From an uncultured Candidatus Saccharibacteria bacterium (GTDB lineage: Bacteria; Patescibacteriota; Minisyncoccia; Phycocordibacterales; JACOZG01), in contig CAZQDR010000004.1 of NCBI GenBank assembly GCA_964591715.1, forward strand, positions 375 to 64,374: a stretch of DNA of 64,000 nucleotides, given 5' to 3'. Shown in pieces: positions 3,789 through 62,353 of the stretch. The translations under genes and the position numbers were made by a program. Within the stretch, counting starts at the first letter, position 1; each line of letters opens with the position of its first letter. The notes beneath the pieces were generated by a model that did not search any database, had not been told where the DNA came from, and saw only the letters and a list, made by a program, of their open reading frames with translations.

Positions 3789-4142
3789 ATGAATTTTATT
3801 AACACTGTTCTTGCGCAACAATCAGGATCAAATCCTCCCGGCGGCGGTCAGGGAGGTTCTAACCCACCAGCTGGATCCGGCATTGGCAATCCGCTTGGCT
3901 CGATTGATACAATCCAAAAGTTAATTATCAAAATTTTAGATCTGGTAGTACAGATTGGCTTACCCGTTATCGTGCTCATGATCATGTATGCCGGTTTTAA
4001 ATACGTCATTGCTCGGGGCGACCCGGGTAAAATCAAAGAGGCCCATCAGGCTTTGCTTTGGACCGTCATCGGTGCCGCAGTTGTTTTGGGTGCCAGTGTC
4101 ATCTCTTACGCCATCCAAAGTACCGTCACCAGCTTAAAATAA
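3789..4142 (+). CDS. VirB2/TrbC-like small membrane protein paralog 2
   Basis: Gly/Pro-rich N-terminal region followed by a two-helix C-terminal module, with a 'RGDPGKIKEAHQALLWTVIGAAVVLGA' loop homologous to paralog 1. Confidence 0.5.
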   Translation: MNFINTVLAQQSGSNPPGGGQGGSNPPAGSGIGNPLGSIDTIQKLIIKILDLVVQIGLPVIVLMIMYAGFKYVIARGDPGKIKEAHQALLWTVIGAAVVLGASVISYAIQSTVTSLK

Positions 4143-4145
4143 AAT

Positions 4146-4595
4146 ATGAATAAATACATTATTATTGCAGTCTTGTTGGTAAACTTCTTTCTCTTACCGC
4201 TAACTTATGCCGCTGGTCCTACTGGTGGACCAGAGGCTCCGGCCGGCACCCCCGCGGCCACTAATTACGGTCAGGTGACCACTAGTTCGGCGGGCAGTTG
4301 CGGCAATATTAAAGATTTTGCCAGTTTTGTTAACTGTATCCGCGACGGAATTATTCAGCCACTTATCTACTTATTGTTCGCCCTGGCTATTGTCTACTTT
4401 TTGTATGGGGTGTTACAATATATCAGGAAAGGTGGTGACGAGGATAGTCAACGCGAGGCTCGCAGTATGATGATCTTCGGCATTATTGCCATTGCAGTAA
4501 TGGTGTCGGTGTGGGGCTTGGTTAACTTTTTAACCAACAGTTTTAAGTTAGACAATGCGTCGCCCATTGTTCCCAAAATTAGTTTATTAAAATAA
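4146..4595 (+). CDS. VirB2/TrbC-like small membrane protein paralog 3
   Basis: Signal peptide, variable region, then the conserved C-terminal module 'LYGVLQYIRKGGDEDSQREARSMMIFGIIAIAVMVSVWGLVNFL'. Confidence 0.5.
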   Translation: MNKYIIIAVLLVNFFLLPLTYAAGPTGGPEAPAGTPAATNYGQVTTSSAGSCGNIKDFASFVNCIRDGIIQPLIYLLFALAIVYFLYGVLQYIRKGGDEDSQREARSMMIFGIIAIAVMVSVWGLVNFLTNSFKLDNASPIVPKISLLK

Positions 4596-5333: not shown

Positions 5334-6050
5334 CTAGCGATGGTCTCGCCAGTACGCCGCTATTCGTTCCTGACTCCAGGGAGTCCAGGTAACAGTTACT
5401 GTCGCCGGTTTCGTTTCAATTTCGTTAGTCCGAAACCGGCAGGGCCCGACGTCCGCGACTGGCGCTACGCCAATGTTGGAACGGTTCTTCGGCCAGATCG
5501 TGTACATCTGACCGCTGGGCGTGATCTTGTCGACCGCGCCCGTGACCTGAATGTCCCAGTCACAGGCTGGTGGGATCTCGATCGCTTCGGTCGAGAATTC
5601 TCCCAGCGGCGCCACCAAGGTTCGCTTTTGCTCGGCGCTACCACTAGTGGTTACTGTCGCTCGGGCAATCGTCGGCGCCGTCAGCCAATCCCGCAGTGTG
5701 GGATAGCTGAACAAGAATAGACCGACAATGACCAGGCCCCAAATGTTCCGTTGAATGGTGGCTGAGCCATACTTGGCAACAACCAAGATGATTATGGCTA
5801 CGGCCAGAAACATCAGGACGGTTGTGCTGGGGAGCCACGAGTGATAGGTCGTCCAGCCACCCAGACTTAGACTGGGTTTGCCAAACGGCCAGAGCCAAAT
5901 TGCCAGCGCAATCACCACCACCGAGGCCGCGATTCCGCCACCCCACTTCATTGCCCGACGATTGACTCCCGCCTTCGACAGGATGCCTAGGAAAACGACT
6001 AGCCCTAAGACTCCCAACAAAGCCGCAATTACCTGAAGTAGCTCACTCAT
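5334..6050 (-). CDS. Hypothetical polytopic membrane protein
   Basis: 238 aa with several N-terminal TM helices and a C-terminal soluble domain. No recognisable family. Confidence 0.45.
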   Translation of the reverse strand: MSELLQVIAALLGVLGLVVFLGILSKAGVNRRAMKWGGGIAASVVVIALAIWLWPFGKPSLSLGGWTTYHSWLPSTTVLMFLAVAIIILVVAKYGSATIQRNIWGLVIVGLFLFSYPTLRDWLTAPTIARATVTTSGSAEQKRTLVAPLGEFSTEAIEIPPACDWDIQVTGAVDKITPSGQMYTIWPKNRSNIGVAPVADVGPCRFRTNEIETKPATVTVTWTPWSQERIAAYWRDHR

Positions 6051-6100
6051 TAATATCCCCTTATTCTTGAACGTGATTTAAAGTCCAGGTTAACGCTACT

Positions 6101-6135
6101 TGACAGTATAGCATATAATATGCTATTGTCAATAC
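6101..6135. promoter_or_regulatory. 35-bp imperfect palindrome (TTGACAGTATAGCATAT/ATATGCTATTGTCAA) overlapping -35/-10-like hexamers in the divergent intergenic region. A third half-site TTGACAGCATA lies at 6165-6175.
   Basis: Read directly from the sequence. Inverted repeat with a TTGACAGyATA half-site present three times between the divergently oriented genes 5334-6050 (-) and 6183-7373 (+). Confidence 0.4.
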
Positions 6136-6182
6136 CAGCAACGTTAACTGTGTCTATTGGCCTTTGACAGCATACAAGGAGC

Positions 6183-7373
6183 ATGAAAATGCTAAGCGGA
6201 ATCGCGTTGATCGTTCTGGCCTTTGGTTTGTTGGTGGTTGGTCTGTATTACGCGGCCAAACTTAAGACCCACGTCACGAATGTGCGGACGGGGAGAATGG
6301 AGCTAGTGGTTGCAGGAGAAACGCTCGTAAAAGTGCTGAGCAATCTGCCAGGGCACCACGCCAAAAGACAGACCGATGGTACCTGGAAGATCGTCCCCAA
6401 TATTGTAGATGGGGAAGGGAATGTGATTGAGGATGGTCATAGAGCCGGACCCTTAGGTTATCTGGAGCGAAAGTGGGGTATTTACTGGGTTAGCTTGTGG
6501 TACCCCTTGCGTCAGGTTCTGAAGTTCAATCTTCCCTTTGCCGACCGCTTGGTCAGCGAATCGAAGTTGAATGCAGACTACAAAGTCAAAGATCGGATTG
6601 AGCACGTAGTTTCAAAACCAGTTGAAGACTTGCTGTGGCAATTTCCTCACCCGGTGTTTGTGCCAGAAGTAGAGTTGGGGGAGGACGGAGCCAAGGCTGA
6701 TTTTGTGGTCAATGCAATCTTGCAGATTGAGGATCCGGGACAAGCGGTGCTTGTCCATGACGCAAAGTTCTTCCTGACCATTAACCAGGTTATCCAGGGG
6801 GTGGTGGGAGACTTTGGCACCAAGCTCACTTACCAGAAGTTGCGTGCGACCCGCAAAGGGTTGGGTAAAAACAACCAACCGTCGACGGATCCCACTCTCG
6901 CCAGTATTGCTCAGCTAGCGATCGAAGCAAACGATCAGCCATCACCTGACGATGAATCACGGAGCGTACGCGAAGTAACTGGCGTTAAGATCATTAACGC
7001 TTGGGTGGTTGACTTCAATCTGACGGGCGCTAGTCTGGAACTCCAAAATGCCGCACAGCAAATGGAGATCCAGAAAAATCTGGCAGCGGCGGCGAAAGAG
7101 CGCGGCAAAGGTGCGGCGGATGAAATTAATGCCAAGGCAAAAGCCGAAGCAGATCGAATCGATATCATTGCCGAAGCCATGAGAAAAAATGGCGCCAGCG
7201 GTGATGCTATCGCAGCGGTGATTGGGACCATTCTTCGCACTGAAAACATCGGTAAGATGACTGGTCTCAGTACCTACATGGAAGGTGGAGGAACGGGGAT
7301 GGTGGCGGTTACGTCAACACCTCGGACGACTCCGCCTCCGGTCGTACCTCCGGCCCCGCCCAGCAATCCTTGA
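6183..7373 (+). CDS. SPFH/band-7-like (flotillin/HflK-like) membrane protein
   Basis: N-terminal TM helix and a C-terminal Ala/Glu/Lys-rich coiled coil 'AAAAKERGKGAADEINAKAKAEADRIDIIAEA', typical of SPFH C-termini. The family call is moderate. Confidence 0.45.
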   Translation: MKMLSGIALIVLAFGLLVVGLYYAAKLKTHVTNVRTGRMELVVAGETLVKVLSNLPGHHAKRQTDGTWKIVPNIVDGEGNVIEDGHRAGPLGYLERKWGIYWVSLWYPLRQVLKFNLPFADRLVSESKLNADYKVKDRIEHVVSKPVEDLLWQFPHPVFVPEVELGEDGAKADFVVNAILQIEDPGQAVLVHDAKFFLTINQVIQGVVGDFGTKLTYQKLRATRKGLGKNNQPSTDPTLASIAQLAIEANDQPSPDDESRSVREVTGVKIINAWVVDFNLTGASLELQNAAQQMEIQKNLAAAAKERGKGAADEINAKAKAEADRIDIIAEAMRKNGASGDAIAAVIGTILRTENIGKMTGLSTYMEGGGTGMVAVTSTPRTTPPPVVPPAPPSNP

Positions 7374-34750: not shown

Positions 34751-35944
34751 ATGAAGCGCTCGGCCTATCCCTTGATCCTCGTGGCGGCGTTCGCCATTTT
34801 ATTATTTATGGCCAGTGGCGTACCGGGAAGTTCGCCTAGTGAGTTATTGAGTTTGGTCTTTCCTGAGACAATTACCCCCGAGGCTTTAAAGAGCGCGTAT
34901 GCGGGGCGACGACTGCGCGTATTACTTGTCCCTGGACATGACCACGAATATGGCGGTACGGCTTATGGCAAGATAACTGAAGAGCAGTTGAATGTTGAGA
35001 TGGCTCGGGCGCTTTATGACGTTTTAAAGACAGATCCTCACTACGAGGTTACTACTACCCGTGATTTAACCACAAGGGAATATATTCCCGAACTCCAGCG
35101 TTACTTGATCGATAATCGCGAAAAAATAATTAAACGCACTAGTGAACTTAAAACCGCTTTTTACGATTTTGTTGATCGGGGCGAGCTGACTTTGCAAGAG
35201 GGGATGAATCATAAAGTGGCAGCGACCGAAGTCGCGATCCGACTCTATGGCATTAATGCCTGGGCGAATGAGCAGAAGATTGATTTGGCGTTACATATCC
35301 ACTTCAACGATTATGGTGGACGACGGAGAGGGGTAGTCGGACCATATAATGGCTTTGCCATTTATGTACCAGAGGGTCAGTATGCCAATGCTCGAGCTAG
35401 TAAAGAGTTGGGGCTTGCCATTTCGAACGCCTTGCAACAACGCTTGCCGCTAAGCGATTTCCCTCAAGAGAGTTCGCCGGTGACCGAAGACCAAAGTTTA
35501 ATTGCAATTGGCGCTTATGGTTCCCGTGAGGGTGGAGCAATGCTTTTGGAGTATGGTTATATTTACGAATCACAGTGGCAGAGTAAAGCGGTACGTGATT
35601 TGATGCTACCGGAGTTGGCATTAAAGACGGCGGAGGGGATGAAGCGCTATTTTGAACCAACAGCTGGAGCCTTGGCCTCTAAAATCTTGCCCGCGACCAT
35701 TAGCGCTGATTTGAAAAAGTCAGTCACGCCGCTACCAGATGTCCTGCGACTTCAAACTGCCCTGCAACGTGAGGGTTTGTATCCACCCGCGGGAGAGACC
35801 TTGGCCAGCTGTCCACTCTCGGCCGTGTTTGGTCCTTGCACAGCCTTGGCCGTGACAGCCTTCCAGAAAAAATATAGTATCCCTAGTACCGGCCAGGTAG
35901 ATTCAGCGACGCGAGCTCAGTTGAACTCCCTAGTCAGCAGCTAA
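34751..35944 (+). CDS. N-acetylmuramoyl-L-alanine amidase (Amidase_3-like) with C-terminal peptidoglycan-binding domain
   Basis: Signal/TM helix. Amidase_3-like metal site 'VLLVPGHDHEYGG...EEQLNVEMA' and 'HIHFNDYGG'. C-terminal PG-binding fold 'LQTALQREGLY...AVTAFQKKYSIPSTGQVDSATRAQL'. Confidence 0.6.
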   Translation: MKRSAYPLILVAAFAILLFMASGVPGSSPSELLSLVFPETITPEALKSAYAGRRLRVLLVPGHDHEYGGTAYGKITEEQLNVEMARALYDVLKTDPHYEVTTTRDLTTREYIPELQRYLIDNREKIIKRTSELKTAFYDFVDRGELTLQEGMNHKVAATEVAIRLYGINAWANEQKIDLALHIHFNDYGGRRRGVVGPYNGFAIYVPEGQYANARASKELGLAISNALQQRLPLSDFPQESSPVTEDQSLIAIGAYGSREGGAMLLEYGYIYESQWQSKAVRDLMLPELALKTAEGMKRYFEPTAGALASKILPATISADLKKSVTPLPDVLRLQTALQREGLYPPAGETLASCPLSAVFGPCTALAVTAFQKKYSIPSTGQVDSATRAQLNSLVSS

Positions 35945-36909
35945 TGGTTAATAATTTTTGGACTAAATTAAAGAAGCCGATTTTGGTTTTGGCGCCGATG
36001 GCTGATGTCACCGACGCCGCTTTTCGGCGCGTTATTGCTAAGTATGGCAAACCGGCAGTAACCTGGACCGAGTTTGTCTCGGCTGACGGTCTTTGTCATC
36101 CCGAAGGCCGCAAGCGCTTACTGAACGATCTTTTATATACCGCAGCCGAACGGCCGATTGTGGCGCAACTCTTCTCGGCCAATCCGGCCAAAATGCGCGA
36201 GGCGGCGGCGCTAGTACAGTCGCTTGGCGTTGATGGTTTGGATATTAATATTGGTTGTCCCGATAAAACGATTGAGAAGCAGGGAGCGGGTGCGGCCCTC
36301 ATTAAAAACCCAAAACTGGCGCGCGAGGTTTTGCGTGCGGCCAAGGAAGGCGCGCCCCATTTACCCGTCTCGGTGAAGACGCGGGTCGGTTACAACAAAG
36401 ACGAACTAGACCGTTGGCTCCCCGAACTCTTGGCGGAAAATCCAGCCGTGGTCACTATTCATGCGCGGACACGAAAAGAAATGTCTAAAGTGCCAGCTCG
36501 CTGGTCGGATGTGGCTCGGGCAGTAAAAATTCGTGATGATTTAAAAAGTGAGACTTTAATTTTTGGTAACGGCGATGCCCTTAACTTGGCGGATGCGTCC
36601 GACAAGGCCAAGGCCAGCGGTGCCGATGGTGTGATGTTGGGTCGAGCCATTTTTGGTAATCCCTGGCTCTTTAGTGGGGGAGGTAAACCCGCCGTGGCCG
36701 AGCAACTTGAGGTGTTAGTTGAGCACACCAAACTGTTTGCTGAACTTTTAGGCGAGCATAAAAGCTTTGCCGTGATGAAAAAGCACTACAAGGCCTATGT
36801 GGCCGGTTGGGATGGGGCGCACGAGTTGCGCGCTAAGTTAATGGAAGTTAATACGGCCGTCGAAGTGGAGCAAATTATTACCGAGTACTTAAAAAATGGC
36901 TCTATATAG
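35944..36909 (+). CDS. tRNA-dihydrouridine synthase
   Basis: 'LAPMADVTDAAFRRV', 'IDINIGCPDK' and 'VKTRVG' are Dus-family TIM-barrel motifs. Confidence 0.85.
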   Translation: MVNNFWTKLKKPILVLAPMADVTDAAFRRVIAKYGKPAVTWTEFVSADGLCHPEGRKRLLNDLLYTAAERPIVAQLFSANPAKMREAAALVQSLGVDGLDINIGCPDKTIEKQGAGAALIKNPKLAREVLRAAKEGAPHLPVSVKTRVGYNKDELDRWLPELLAENPAVVTIHARTRKEMSKVPARWSDVARAVKIRDDLKSETLIFGNGDALNLADASDKAKASGADGVMLGRAIFGNPWLFSGGGKPAVAEQLEVLVEHTKLFAELLGEHKSFAVMKKHYKAYVAGWDGAHELRAKLMEVNTAVEVEQIITEYLKNGSI

Positions 36910-36949
36910 CCATGGTTAGCCTTCCTTAATCACAACACCTTTAAAAGTA

Positions 36950-36978
36950 TTGACAAGCTGGACGGGGTTTGGTAGTTT
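36950..36978 (+). promoter_or_regulatory. Putative promoter (TTGACA, 17 bp, TAGTTT)
   Basis: Consensus -35 at 36950-36955, about 40 bp after the dus stop. Confidence 0.4.
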
Positions 36979-36984
36979 ATTGGA

Positions 36985-37331
36985 GGAACAGTGGAGTTGT
37001 CTTGGGTCCAGGAACACCACCTGGCGCCCACTTGCCAGCTAGTAGGCTGGAGAAAGGTAAGGATCCCATGATCCGTAACCGTAGCCCTGATCAGAGTTCC
37101 TTTCAGAACAGTATTCTCAATTGCCAATGCAGCATGATCGTCGCGGCCAGCGCCAGCTGATCGTCGGCGGCCCGGCGGCCCTGGAGACGTCACACCAGGT
37201 GACTATCACCGGAGAGGTCTCCAGGGCCCGGGTCCAGGATTGGGAAAGAAGCCAGGACGGGAAAAGCATCGGGGAAAGAAGAAGCAGGACTTTTGTCCGA
37301 TGGGGCACACGCAGCGTGTGCCCTTTTTTTA
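36985..37331 (+). ncRNA. Candidate structured non-coding RNA (~350 nt, GC-rich) ending in a strong terminator immediately upstream of dnaX; SRP RNA (ffs) is suspected from synteny only
   Basis: Promoter at 36950 and terminator GGGCACAC/GTGTGCCC+T7 at 37302-37331. ~58 % GC against a ~49 % backbone. Only short, implausible ORFs, with no RBS and running through the terminator. The motif GGGAAAGAAGCCAGGAC / GGGGAAAGAAGAAGCAGGAC loosely resembles the SRP helix-8 'GGAAGGAAGCAGCC' motif. The ffs-dnaX adjacency is common in bacteria. Confidence 0.35.
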
Positions 37332-37357
37332 TGCCCAAAATAAGATAGAATAGAGCC

Positions 37358-38392
37358 ATGTCCGAGCTTGCTCTCTATCGTAAATACCGCCCTGCCAAAT
37401 TTAGCGAGGTGGTTGGCCAAGATCACGTGATTAGCGTACTTGAAGGAGCGCTCGAGCAGGGTAATGTCTCGCACGCTTATCTTTTTGCTGGTTCTCGCGG
37501 CACGGGTAAAACCAGTGTGGCTCGCATTTTTGCTAAAGTCTTGGGGACCTCACCGAGTGACTTGTACGAAATCGATGCCGCCTCCAGTCGCGGTATTGAT
37601 GAGATCCGCGAACTGCGCGAGGCGGTGCGCACCTTGCCGTTTGAATCAAAATATAAAGTTTACATTATTGATGAGGTGCACATGTTAACCAAGGAGGCTT
37701 TTAATGCTTTGTTAAAAACCTTGGAGGAGCCGCCTGCCCATGTCATTTTTATTTTAGCGACCACCGAGACACACAAGTTGCCCGAGACGATTGTGTCGCG
37801 CTGTCAGGCTTTTACCTTCCGCAAGCCGACCCTGGATGAATTAAAAAAGGTGGTGAGTAAGGTGGCCAAGGCCGAAGGGTTTAGCATTGAACCACTCGCC
37901 GCGGAGCTGGTCGCCTTGCTGGGTGACGGCTCGTATCGCGATACTTTGGGAGCCCTCCAAAAGGCGATGAGCGCCTCCAGTGATAATAAGATTGTTAGCA
38001 AAGAGATTGAGCAGGTTATGGGCGCGCCGAGTAGCCGCTTAGTCTCTGATTTTATTCTGGCGCTTTTGGAGAAAAAGCTGGAGGGTGGGTTGGCGGTAAC
38101 GCGAGAGCTGGTAGCTGGTAATCAGGATTTAAAGTTGTTTTTAAAATTAGTGTTGCGGGATTTTCGTCTAGCGATGCTGGCCAAATTTGCCCCGGCCGTG
38201 GCTAAACCCATGCTGGTACCCCTGGGTGAGGAGGCTGAGAAGAGACTGCAAACCGTGGCGGCGCATGCAAATGCCAAAGACTTGCCACTTATTTTGCGGG
38301 AACTCCTGGCGGTTTACGATCACCTTGGCCGCTCCTATGTGCCCGAGTTACCACTCGAGCTGGCCTTGATCAAACTTAGCGCGGCGGTATAA
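37358..38392 (+). CDS. dnaX: DNA polymerase III subunit gamma/tau (short form, domains I-III)
   Basis: 'LFAGSRGTGKTSVARIFAKVL' (Walker A), 'YIIDEVHML' (Walker B), 'ILATTE' and 'SRCQAF' (sensor motifs). 344 aa. Confidence 0.9.
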   Translation: MSELALYRKYRPAKFSEVVGQDHVISVLEGALEQGNVSHAYLFAGSRGTGKTSVARIFAKVLGTSPSDLYEIDAASSRGIDEIRELREAVRTLPFESKYKVYIIDEVHMLTKEAFNALLKTLEEPPAHVIFILATTETHKLPETIVSRCQAFTFRKPTLDELKKVVSKVAKAEGFSIEPLAAELVALLGDGSYRDTLGALQKAMSASSDNKIVSKEIEQVMGAPSSRLVSDFILALLEKKLEGGLAVTRELVAGNQDLKLFLKLVLRDFRLAMLAKFAPAVAKPMLVPLGEEAEKRLQTVAAHANAKDLPLILRELLAVYDHLGRSYVPELPLELALIKLSAAV

Positions 38393-40769: not shown

Positions 40770-40840
40770 TTGCCGGACTTGGATTCGAACCAAGATACTC
40801 GCCTCCAAAGGGCGATGTCCTACCATTAGACGATCCGGCA
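40770..40840 (-). tRNA. tRNA-Gln (anticodon TTG)
   Basis: Reverse complement: acceptor TGCCGGA/TCCGGCA (U1-A72, as in bacterial tRNA-Gln), anticodon stem TCGCC/GGCGA with loop CTTTGGA, T-loop GGTTCGAATCC. Confidence 0.85.
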
Positions 40841-61870: not shown

Positions 61871-61881
61871 TTACTCGCCTC

Positions 61882-61905
61882 GGCCCTCCTCGGAGGGCCT
61901 TTTTC
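61882..61905 (+). terminator. Rho-independent terminator
   Basis: GGCCCTC/GAGGGCC stem with T5. Confidence 0.55.
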
Positions 61906-62183
61906 GTCTTTACAAAATCCGAGCTCGGGCGTACGCTTAAAGCAGACCTTGATCCATCTGGGCCCAAGCATGATAGGAGGTGAAAAAGTTCTTACTCCAA
62001 AAATTATTTGCGAGGACTGTTCACATCGCAGCCTCGCTTGCACTAAGAGGGATGTGGCGGAAGGTGGCCCAGCCGCCACTCCTACTTTTTAAGGAATCAC
62101 CCTTTGCCGTGTTGGCAATCAAACTTCAGTTGTGCGGGGAGGCTCAAGTTCCATCAAGCAAGCGCGTCCCTCCTCGCCAGCAG

Positions 62184-62214
62184 CCCCAGAGCAGTTCACG
62201 CTCTGGGGTTTTTT
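62184..62214 (+). terminator. Rho-independent terminator without an obvious upstream gene
   Basis: Perfect 9-bp stem CCCCAGAGC/GCTCTGGGG with T6. Confidence 0.6.
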
Positions 62215-62287
62215 ATAACTTCATTTAGCTTTTGCATAGTAATCACTTCGTTGGGTTGGCGTGTCTTCCGCGATGTGCCACCAACAG

Positions 62288-62314
62288 CCCGGGATATCGT
62301 GTCCCGGGTTTTTT
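62288..62314 (+). terminator. Rho-independent terminator without an obvious upstream gene
   Basis: CCCGGGA/TCCCGGG stem with T6. Confidence 0.55.
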
Positions 62315-62343
62315 ATAAAAAAACGGACCACAATTGTGGTCCG
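62315..62343 (-). terminator. Rho-independent terminator for the 62354-62674 gene
   Basis: Perfect 20-bp palindrome CGGACCACAATTGTGGTCCG, followed on the minus strand by T7. Confidence 0.65.
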
Positions 62344-62353
62344 GCCGAGGCGC

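Follow-up and report, generated by a model that had tools for sequence, protein, structure and literature searches.

An orphan promoter-to-terminator unit upstream of dnaX in a Patescibacteria genome: a candidate lineage-specific non-coding RNA gene

What occupies the GC-rich intergenic sequence ahead of dnaX in this genome, and does it encode an RNA of a known family? The window, by which we mean the whole 64-kb stretch of DNA that was analysed, carries on its + strand a gene for the tRNA-dihydrouridine synthase Dus (35944..36909; Pfam PF01207, E = 2e-61), followed on the same strand by dnaX for the DNA polymerase III gamma/tau subunit (37358..38392; Pfam PF13177, PF00004 and PF12169), which specifies a short form of the protein of 344 aa. 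Homologues of this dnaX are named as Patescibacteria dnaX, and its placement is within the Paceibacteria, near Vogelbacteria. Downstream of dnaX, in place of the ybaB-recR pair known from Bacillus, lies an opposite-strand gene whose product has a lysozyme-inhibitor (MliC) domain. Between Dus and dnaX there is a gap of 448 nt, for which a first-pass annotation had proposed a structured RNA, possibly the SRP RNA, enclosed by a promoter and a terminator and with a GC content of about 58% in a genome of about 49%. The enrichment itself stands, at 57.1% for positions 36975-37335, while the figure given for the genome does not, the window as a whole being 50.8% GC.

Direct reading of the sequence bears out the promoter claimed at 36950. 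This predicted sigma-70-type site (36950..36978, + strand) comprises a -35 element TTGACA (36950-36955), a 17-nt spacer ending in TGG, as in an extended -10 region, and a -10 hexamer TAGTTT (36973-36978), and from its position transcription is predicted to start at about 36984-36986. A generic promoter scan made no call here because TAGTTT matches TATAAT at only three of six positions, and both the weak hexamer and the missed call count against reading the gap as an RNA gene. The strict pattern TTG[AT]CA-N13-15-TGn-TAnnnT, however, has only five matches in the 128 kb that the two strands of the window comprise, with a chance expectation of about 0.02 for the + strand of the 448-nt gap; the four other copies precede protein genes with a Shine-Dalgarno sequence. 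Based on this rarity, together with the recurrence of the pattern right after Dus in relatives (see below), we consider the promoter at 36950 credible. Elsewhere in the window, at 6095-6140, two promoters of the strict class lie back to back within a near-perfect palindrome (TTGACAGTATAGCATATAATATGCTATTGTCAA), one serving a gene at 6183 (+) and the other a divergent gene at 6050 (-); the palindrome may act as an operator or control region for both.

At the other end of the gap, a terminator scan recovers the strong terminator that had been noticed by eye, as an intrinsic terminator on the + strand (37302..37330) with a 10-pair stem at 37302-37324, GGGGCACACGC A GCGUGUGCCC(U), which includes seven G-C pairs and leads into a run of seven U (the T-run 37324-37330). 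The ATG of dnaX at 37358 follows 27 nt past this T-run, precisely as had been stated. The sequence enclosed by the two signals on the + strand would give a transcript of about 345 nt, for which folding predicts three parts. The 5' domain (36985..37131) is modelled, in both minimum-free-energy and consensus folds, as a closing helix around three hairpins, at about 37003-37028, 37035-37050 and 37056-37080, accompanied by a fourth, weaker one. The GC-rich 3' domain (37132..37239) is dominated by a long near-perfect hairpin with arms at 37177-37191 and 37214-37228, an inverted repeat (I1) of 15 nt and 93% complementarity, which is extended outward via GGCCCGG/CCGGGUCC pairing. The third part is a purine-rich tract (37240..37301) holding the tandem repeat CCAGGAUUGGGAAAGAAG / CCAGGACGGGAAAAGCAU (direct repeat D2) and the inverted repeat I12; in the predicted fold it is mostly unpaired, with its 3' end forming a CAUCGG...CCGAUG stem.

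The + strand folds at -151.9 kcal/mol, with z = -4.6 against dinucleotide shuffles, as compared to z = -3.1 for the - strand. Ranked against the 361-nt windows of the genome itself with correction for GC, the + strand comes 18th of 850 (z ~ -2.0) and the - strand 183rd, from which we conclude that the element is structured and strand-asymmetric, though not extreme; that it folds only about two standard deviations better than windows of the same GC from its own genome is a point against the RNA-gene reading. As no homologue was found (see below), the predicted fold is a single-sequence prediction without covariation support. Taken together, the flanking signals, the fold relative to shuffles and the lack of any coding match support the earlier proposal of a structured non-coding unit on the + strand between promoter and terminator. 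A second non-coding gap in the window, at 61871-62353, looks like an orphan unit of the same kind: it has a TTTACA-17-TACGCT box near 61910, a strong fold, a possible 40-aa Cys-rich ORF from 61971, and tandem + strand terminators at 62182-62210 and 62286-62310, which come after the upstream gene's own terminator at 61882-61899.

We then considered the identity that had been suggested for the RNA. Like the element, the SRP RNA gene (ffs or scr) can lie immediately 5' of dnaX, has a dedicated promoter and terminator and specifies a structured, GC-rich RNA, and the proposal further drew on GGAA- and AGCAG-like strings in the sequence. Both of the purine-rich strings are indeed present (37243-37259 and 37272-37291), but their identification with SRP RNA fails, as an Rfam search of 36850-37420 gave no match to any SRP model, even with the combined E-value relaxed to 10. 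Nor did any other Rfam family attain its gathering score in this region. The same region gave no match at E<=10 to the RNase P, tmRNA or 6S models, in agreement with the absence of RNase P RNA and tmRNA already remarked upon; its sole listing at this threshold was a chance match of 15.5 bits between a plant microRNA model and the long hairpin. Across the whole 64-kb window, there was no SRP RNA match at the gathering scores, which are 40 bits for the small (RF00169) and 60 bits for the large (RF01854) type.

As positive controls, the same models recovered SRP RNA directly 5' of dnaX in the Bacillota, namely Peribacillus (L070, 239 bits) and Eubacteriaceae (L021, 208 bits), and in Coprothermobacter (L031, 57 bits). 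Among Patescibacteria, in contrast, they found none within 3 kb of dnaX in 13 relatives' loci at the gathering score, and none near dnaX in the loci of six closer relatives at E<=1. Thus, the synteny argument holds in the control lineages and in no Patescibacteria locus scanned, and is not transferable to this phylum. Furthermore, SRP RNA is a universal molecule with a strongly conserved protein-binding domain IV; the element, being missing from the closest relatives and conserved in no other, is incompatible with such a universal RNA. At about 345 nt, it is also longer than either bacterial type, the models of which have 97 and 256 positions. In light of this, a divergent SRP RNA in its usual place upstream of dnaX appears exceedingly improbable to us. 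Our literature search turned up nothing of use on the SRP RNA of this phylum or on its leaderless genes.

The surroundings of dnaX in other Patescibacteria display a different RNA gene. A tRNA of 71 nt is found directly 3' of dnaX in many loci (among them L001, L003, L004, L008, L012 and L013, at ~4070-4210), and the window has its own copy at 40770-40840 (-), 2.4 kb from dnaX on the opposite strand, with UUG (Gln) in the anticodon loop. The copies in L081, L082 and L083, for which the sequence was shown, closely resemble that of the window. In Patescibacteria, the linkage of dnaX seems to be with this tRNA rather than with ffs.

Another reading is that the element encodes a small protein, either a 24-26 aa ORF or one of the ORFs of 63-94 aa. 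The first-pass annotation held that no ORF in the region is preceded by a ribosome-binding site and that the available ORFs run through the terminator. Both statements are true of the longer ORFs, and both overlook the 24-26 aa ORF, which starts at a TTG at 36997 or a GTG at 36991, is short and is preceded by GGAGGA (36982-36987), 9 nt upstream of the TTG. This ORF, however, has no relatives, and the predicted transcription start falls within the GGAGGA itself. The longer ORFs, besides having no ribosome-binding site and crossing the terminator, are rich in W, R, P and S, a composition typical of GC-rich non-coding DNA. No ORF of the gap has a Pfam match, and a six-frame probe with every stop-to-stop segment retrieved nothing at E<=10 from 5.8 billion protein clusters. 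We accordingly judge it very unlikely that the element is a protein-coding gene.

If the product is an RNA, its size of about 345 nt, its terminal intrinsic terminator and its repeated CAGGA-like motifs recall the protein-sponge RNAs of the CsrB/RsmZ type, which carry many GGA motifs. GGA occurs 13 times in the element against a mean of 4.1 for windows of the genome, none of which reaches 13, and CAGGA occurs four times (P = 0.0135 against dinucleotide shuffles, for motifs chosen after viewing the sequence). Nevertheless, once the composition of the element itself is taken into account, the excess of GGA is marginal (P = 0.066, dinucleotide shuffles), most of the GGA motifs are placed by the predicted fold in stems rather than hairpin loops, and Rfam offers no match to a Csr/Rsm family. 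A sponge of this kind is hence a highly improbable identity for the element.

A promoter followed by a structured stretch of 350 nt, a terminator and, 27 nt further on, a gene is also the classic layout of a leader, and the element could in principle be a long 5' leader of dnaX with conditional termination, as in a riboswitch or attenuator. The start region of dnaX speaks against this. A candidate -10 box, TAGAAT (37346..37351, + strand), lies 6 nt before the ATG, which suggests that the dnaX mRNA would be leaderless. We surveyed the dnaX starts of the window and of L001-L013, L057, L084-L092, L164, L167, L168, L174, L082 and L083 for TAnnnT boxes matching TATAAT in at least 5/6 positions, using random ATGs from the same loci for comparison. 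Such a box is located 5-9 nt before the dnaX ATG in 22 of 27 Patescibacteria loci, as against 3.1% of random ATGs, and a Shine-Dalgarno-like core precedes dnaX in none of the 27; other genes of the window do carry clear Shine-Dalgarno sequences. These start-site signals suggest leaderless dnaX mRNAs throughout the Patescibacteria. A gene with its own promoter has no need of the element as its leader, and a read-through transcript would, phylum-wide, bring no Shine-Dalgarno sequence to dnaX. Moreover, Rfam yields no riboswitch family match, the element is unconserved in relatives, and no alternative anti-terminator pairing was identified. The leader reading is consequently quite unlikely.

In every relative that has a gap at this position, the T-run of the final terminator runs straight into the dnaX promoter. 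This abutment argues that the terminator also insulates dnaX from upstream transcription. The element resembles terminator-based insulators in its strong terminator, the T-run of which borders directly on the promoter of dnaX, a module that recurs in the gapped relatives; such an insulator, however, accounts only for the last ~40 nt, and not for the promoter or the 300-nt structured body.

Searches for relatives of the element itself were uniformly negative. No relative was detected at the level of DNA, translated frames or structure models in 174 related loci; blastn and nhmmer against 163 related loci returned chance matches only, and blastn against the closer Dus-dnaX gaps returned nothing. 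Phage and plasmid collections gave a single chance match of 41 nt, two exact-pattern scans of viral contigs gave no match, and there is no second copy within the 64-kb window. Among the closest relatives, in L081 (dnaX 83% identical), the element is absent and a different gene abuts dnaX; in P0003 (dnaX 78% identical), it is likewise absent and Dus ends 4 nt before the dnaX start. Scans of genomes and metagenomes with generic dnaX motifs had relatives of at most 58% identity among the matches listed. The element is thus an orphan, with no recognizable relative in the collections searched.

More distant relatives, in which Dus or dnaX is 70-76% identical, do have gaps of 290-967 nt at the same junction: L164 (3464-3753), L168 (3463-4314), L082 (557-1034), L167 (3298-4263), L174 (3467-3761) and L083 (2587-3000). 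These gaps consist of one to three tandem units, each with a promoter-like site, a structured stretch and a terminator. L164, L168, L082 and L167 each have exactly one copy of the strict promoter pattern, located on the + strand immediately 3' of Dus, and the first units of these four fold with z of -3.1 to -4.7 against shuffles and are followed by a terminator. Within this subgroup the distance between Dus and dnaX is hypervariable, from 4 nt in P0003 up to 967 nt. The gap of L083 is filled instead by a 99-aa ORF on the opposite strand. In that of L167, positions 4028-4195 hold a 55-aa Cys-rich, zinc-ribbon-like ORF with a strong ribosome-binding site (GGAGGTAAATGTG); small protein genes, therefore, also land at the Dus-dnaX site.

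The bodies of these units are unrelated in sequence. Every pairwise local alignment between units has z<3 against shuffles, shared k-mers are no commoner than in shuffles, a covariance model built on the window's 5' domain retrieved nothing but that domain from 241 kb of related loci, and an Rfam scan of the relatives' gaps gave no relevant match. To the eye, the window, L168 and L164 had seemed to share an RNA family marked by GAACAGU at the 5' end, a core rich in GC, a purine tract and a GGAC-N4-GUCC hairpin. We rejected this family in view of the alignment and k-mer values just given, a poor MAFFT alignment and the failure of the 5'-domain covariance model to find anything other than itself.

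One way to accommodate both the recurring signals and the unrelated bodies is to regard the Dus-dnaX spacer in one Paceibacteria subgroup as a maintained slot, which holds in each lineage one to three strongly expressed, well-folding RNAs under the same promoter class, with complete turnover of their sequence. We regard this as unlikely. Were it true, the slot would hold a class of very fast-evolving RNAs, for instance in host or phage interaction of these symbiotic bacteria, or else what counts would be the act of transcribing and terminating at this site, whatever the RNA sequence.

The borders of the gap provide a hint as to its origin. It is bracketed by the two copies of an 11-nt direct repeat (family D4) on the + strand, 446 nt apart: the left copy ATATAGCCATG (36904..36914) holds the Dus stop codon TAG and then a stray ATG, and the right copy ATAGAGCCATG (37350..37360) holds the true dnaX start codon. 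The Dus stop codon is spanned by a small hairpin (ATGGCTCTA / TATAGCCAT, 36896..36913), and the left arm of this hairpin (36896-36905) also finds a perfect complement in 37350-37359 (inverted repeats I13 and I5); L082 has a comparable ATGGCT...AGCCAT hairpin at its Dus end. Joining the two halves would give a palindromic junction, TAG-AGCC-ATG, with the same 4-nt spacing as in P0003. The flanking repeat and the tight junction of P0003 favour an insertion, and we posit that the 446-nt stretch most likely entered a formerly tight junction of Dus stop and dnaX start. If this insertion proceeded with target duplication, the empty site would read ...CTATATAGAGCCATG... The spacing could equally reflect a deletion between direct repeats in P0003 rather than an insertion in the present genome. 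Were the stretch a transposable or miniature inverted-repeat element, the 11-nt flanking repeat could be read as its target-site duplication; no terminal inverted repeats were seen at the ends of the element when compared by eye, and it is single-copy within the window.

An origin of this type also bears on the most serious competitor to a functional RNA, namely that the RNA body is functionless inserted or leftover DNA that drifts freely, with only the signals mattering: the terminator, and perhaps the promoter, would protect the leaderless dnaX promoter against transcription reading through from the Dus operon. Consistent with this, the bodies are unrelated between lineages while the module of terminator, -10 box and ATG recurs, the closest relative with Dus beside dnaX (P0003) makes do with 4 nt between them, a direct repeat flanks the stretch, and the fold is only moderately unusual for the genome. 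As the unit bodies of the relatives share nothing beyond chance, the RNA sequence itself could be unimportant. On the other hand, a terminator alone needs about 40 nt and not 350, a pure spacer leaves unexplained why in five lineages the gap opens with a strong promoter of the strict class, and all first units fold significantly better than shuffles. We consider a functionless body possible, though doubtful.

Weighing these points, we favour, at roughly even confidence, the interpretation that the gap is a self-contained, lineage-specific non-coding RNA gene of about 345 nt whose terminator also serves to insulate dnaX. As is expected of a free-standing small RNA gene, a dedicated promoter and an intrinsic terminator, both predicted on the same strand, enclose non-coding sequence. 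Ordinary bacterial small RNA genes have a sigma-70 promoter and an intrinsic terminator and are conserved only within a genus or so. Like free-standing bacterial small RNAs, the element is a compact intergenic promoter-to-terminator unit with no coding potential, a structured body, a single-stranded tract before the terminator and a narrow phylogenetic range; it differs in that about 345 nt is at the long end of their range and in that it may be a recent insertion.

Under the RNA-gene interpretation, the sigma-70-type promoter (TTGACA, 17-nt spacer, TGg, TAGTTT) would start transcription near 36985, and the transcript would fold into the multi-hairpin 5' domain, the GC-rich 3' domain and the mostly single-stranded purine-rich tract before ending at the intrinsic terminator 37302-37330. 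This terminator would thus perform a double duty, finishing the small RNA and shielding the dnaX promoter from upstream transcription, and dnaX would lie outside the transcript, with its own promoter and a leaderless mRNA. The exposed purine-rich tract at 37240-37301 would be the most plausible surface for interactions in trans. That the RNA is actually made and acts in trans is what we infer from these signals and the predicted fold.

With regard to annotation, the SRP RNA label is not to be assigned here from synteny alone, and ffs-dnaX linkage should not be assumed in Patescibacteria. To our knowledge, hardly any work has been done on non-coding RNA in this reduced and uncultured group of bacteria, and an orphan RNA unit that is compact, probably transcribed at a high level and adjacent to an essential replication gene would be a reasonable target for metatranscriptomes. 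We see the element itself as a peculiarity of one lineage and not as a major discovery; the apparently leaderless expression of dnaX and the Dus-dnaX junction as a hotspot for the gain of such units are probably of broader use than the element.
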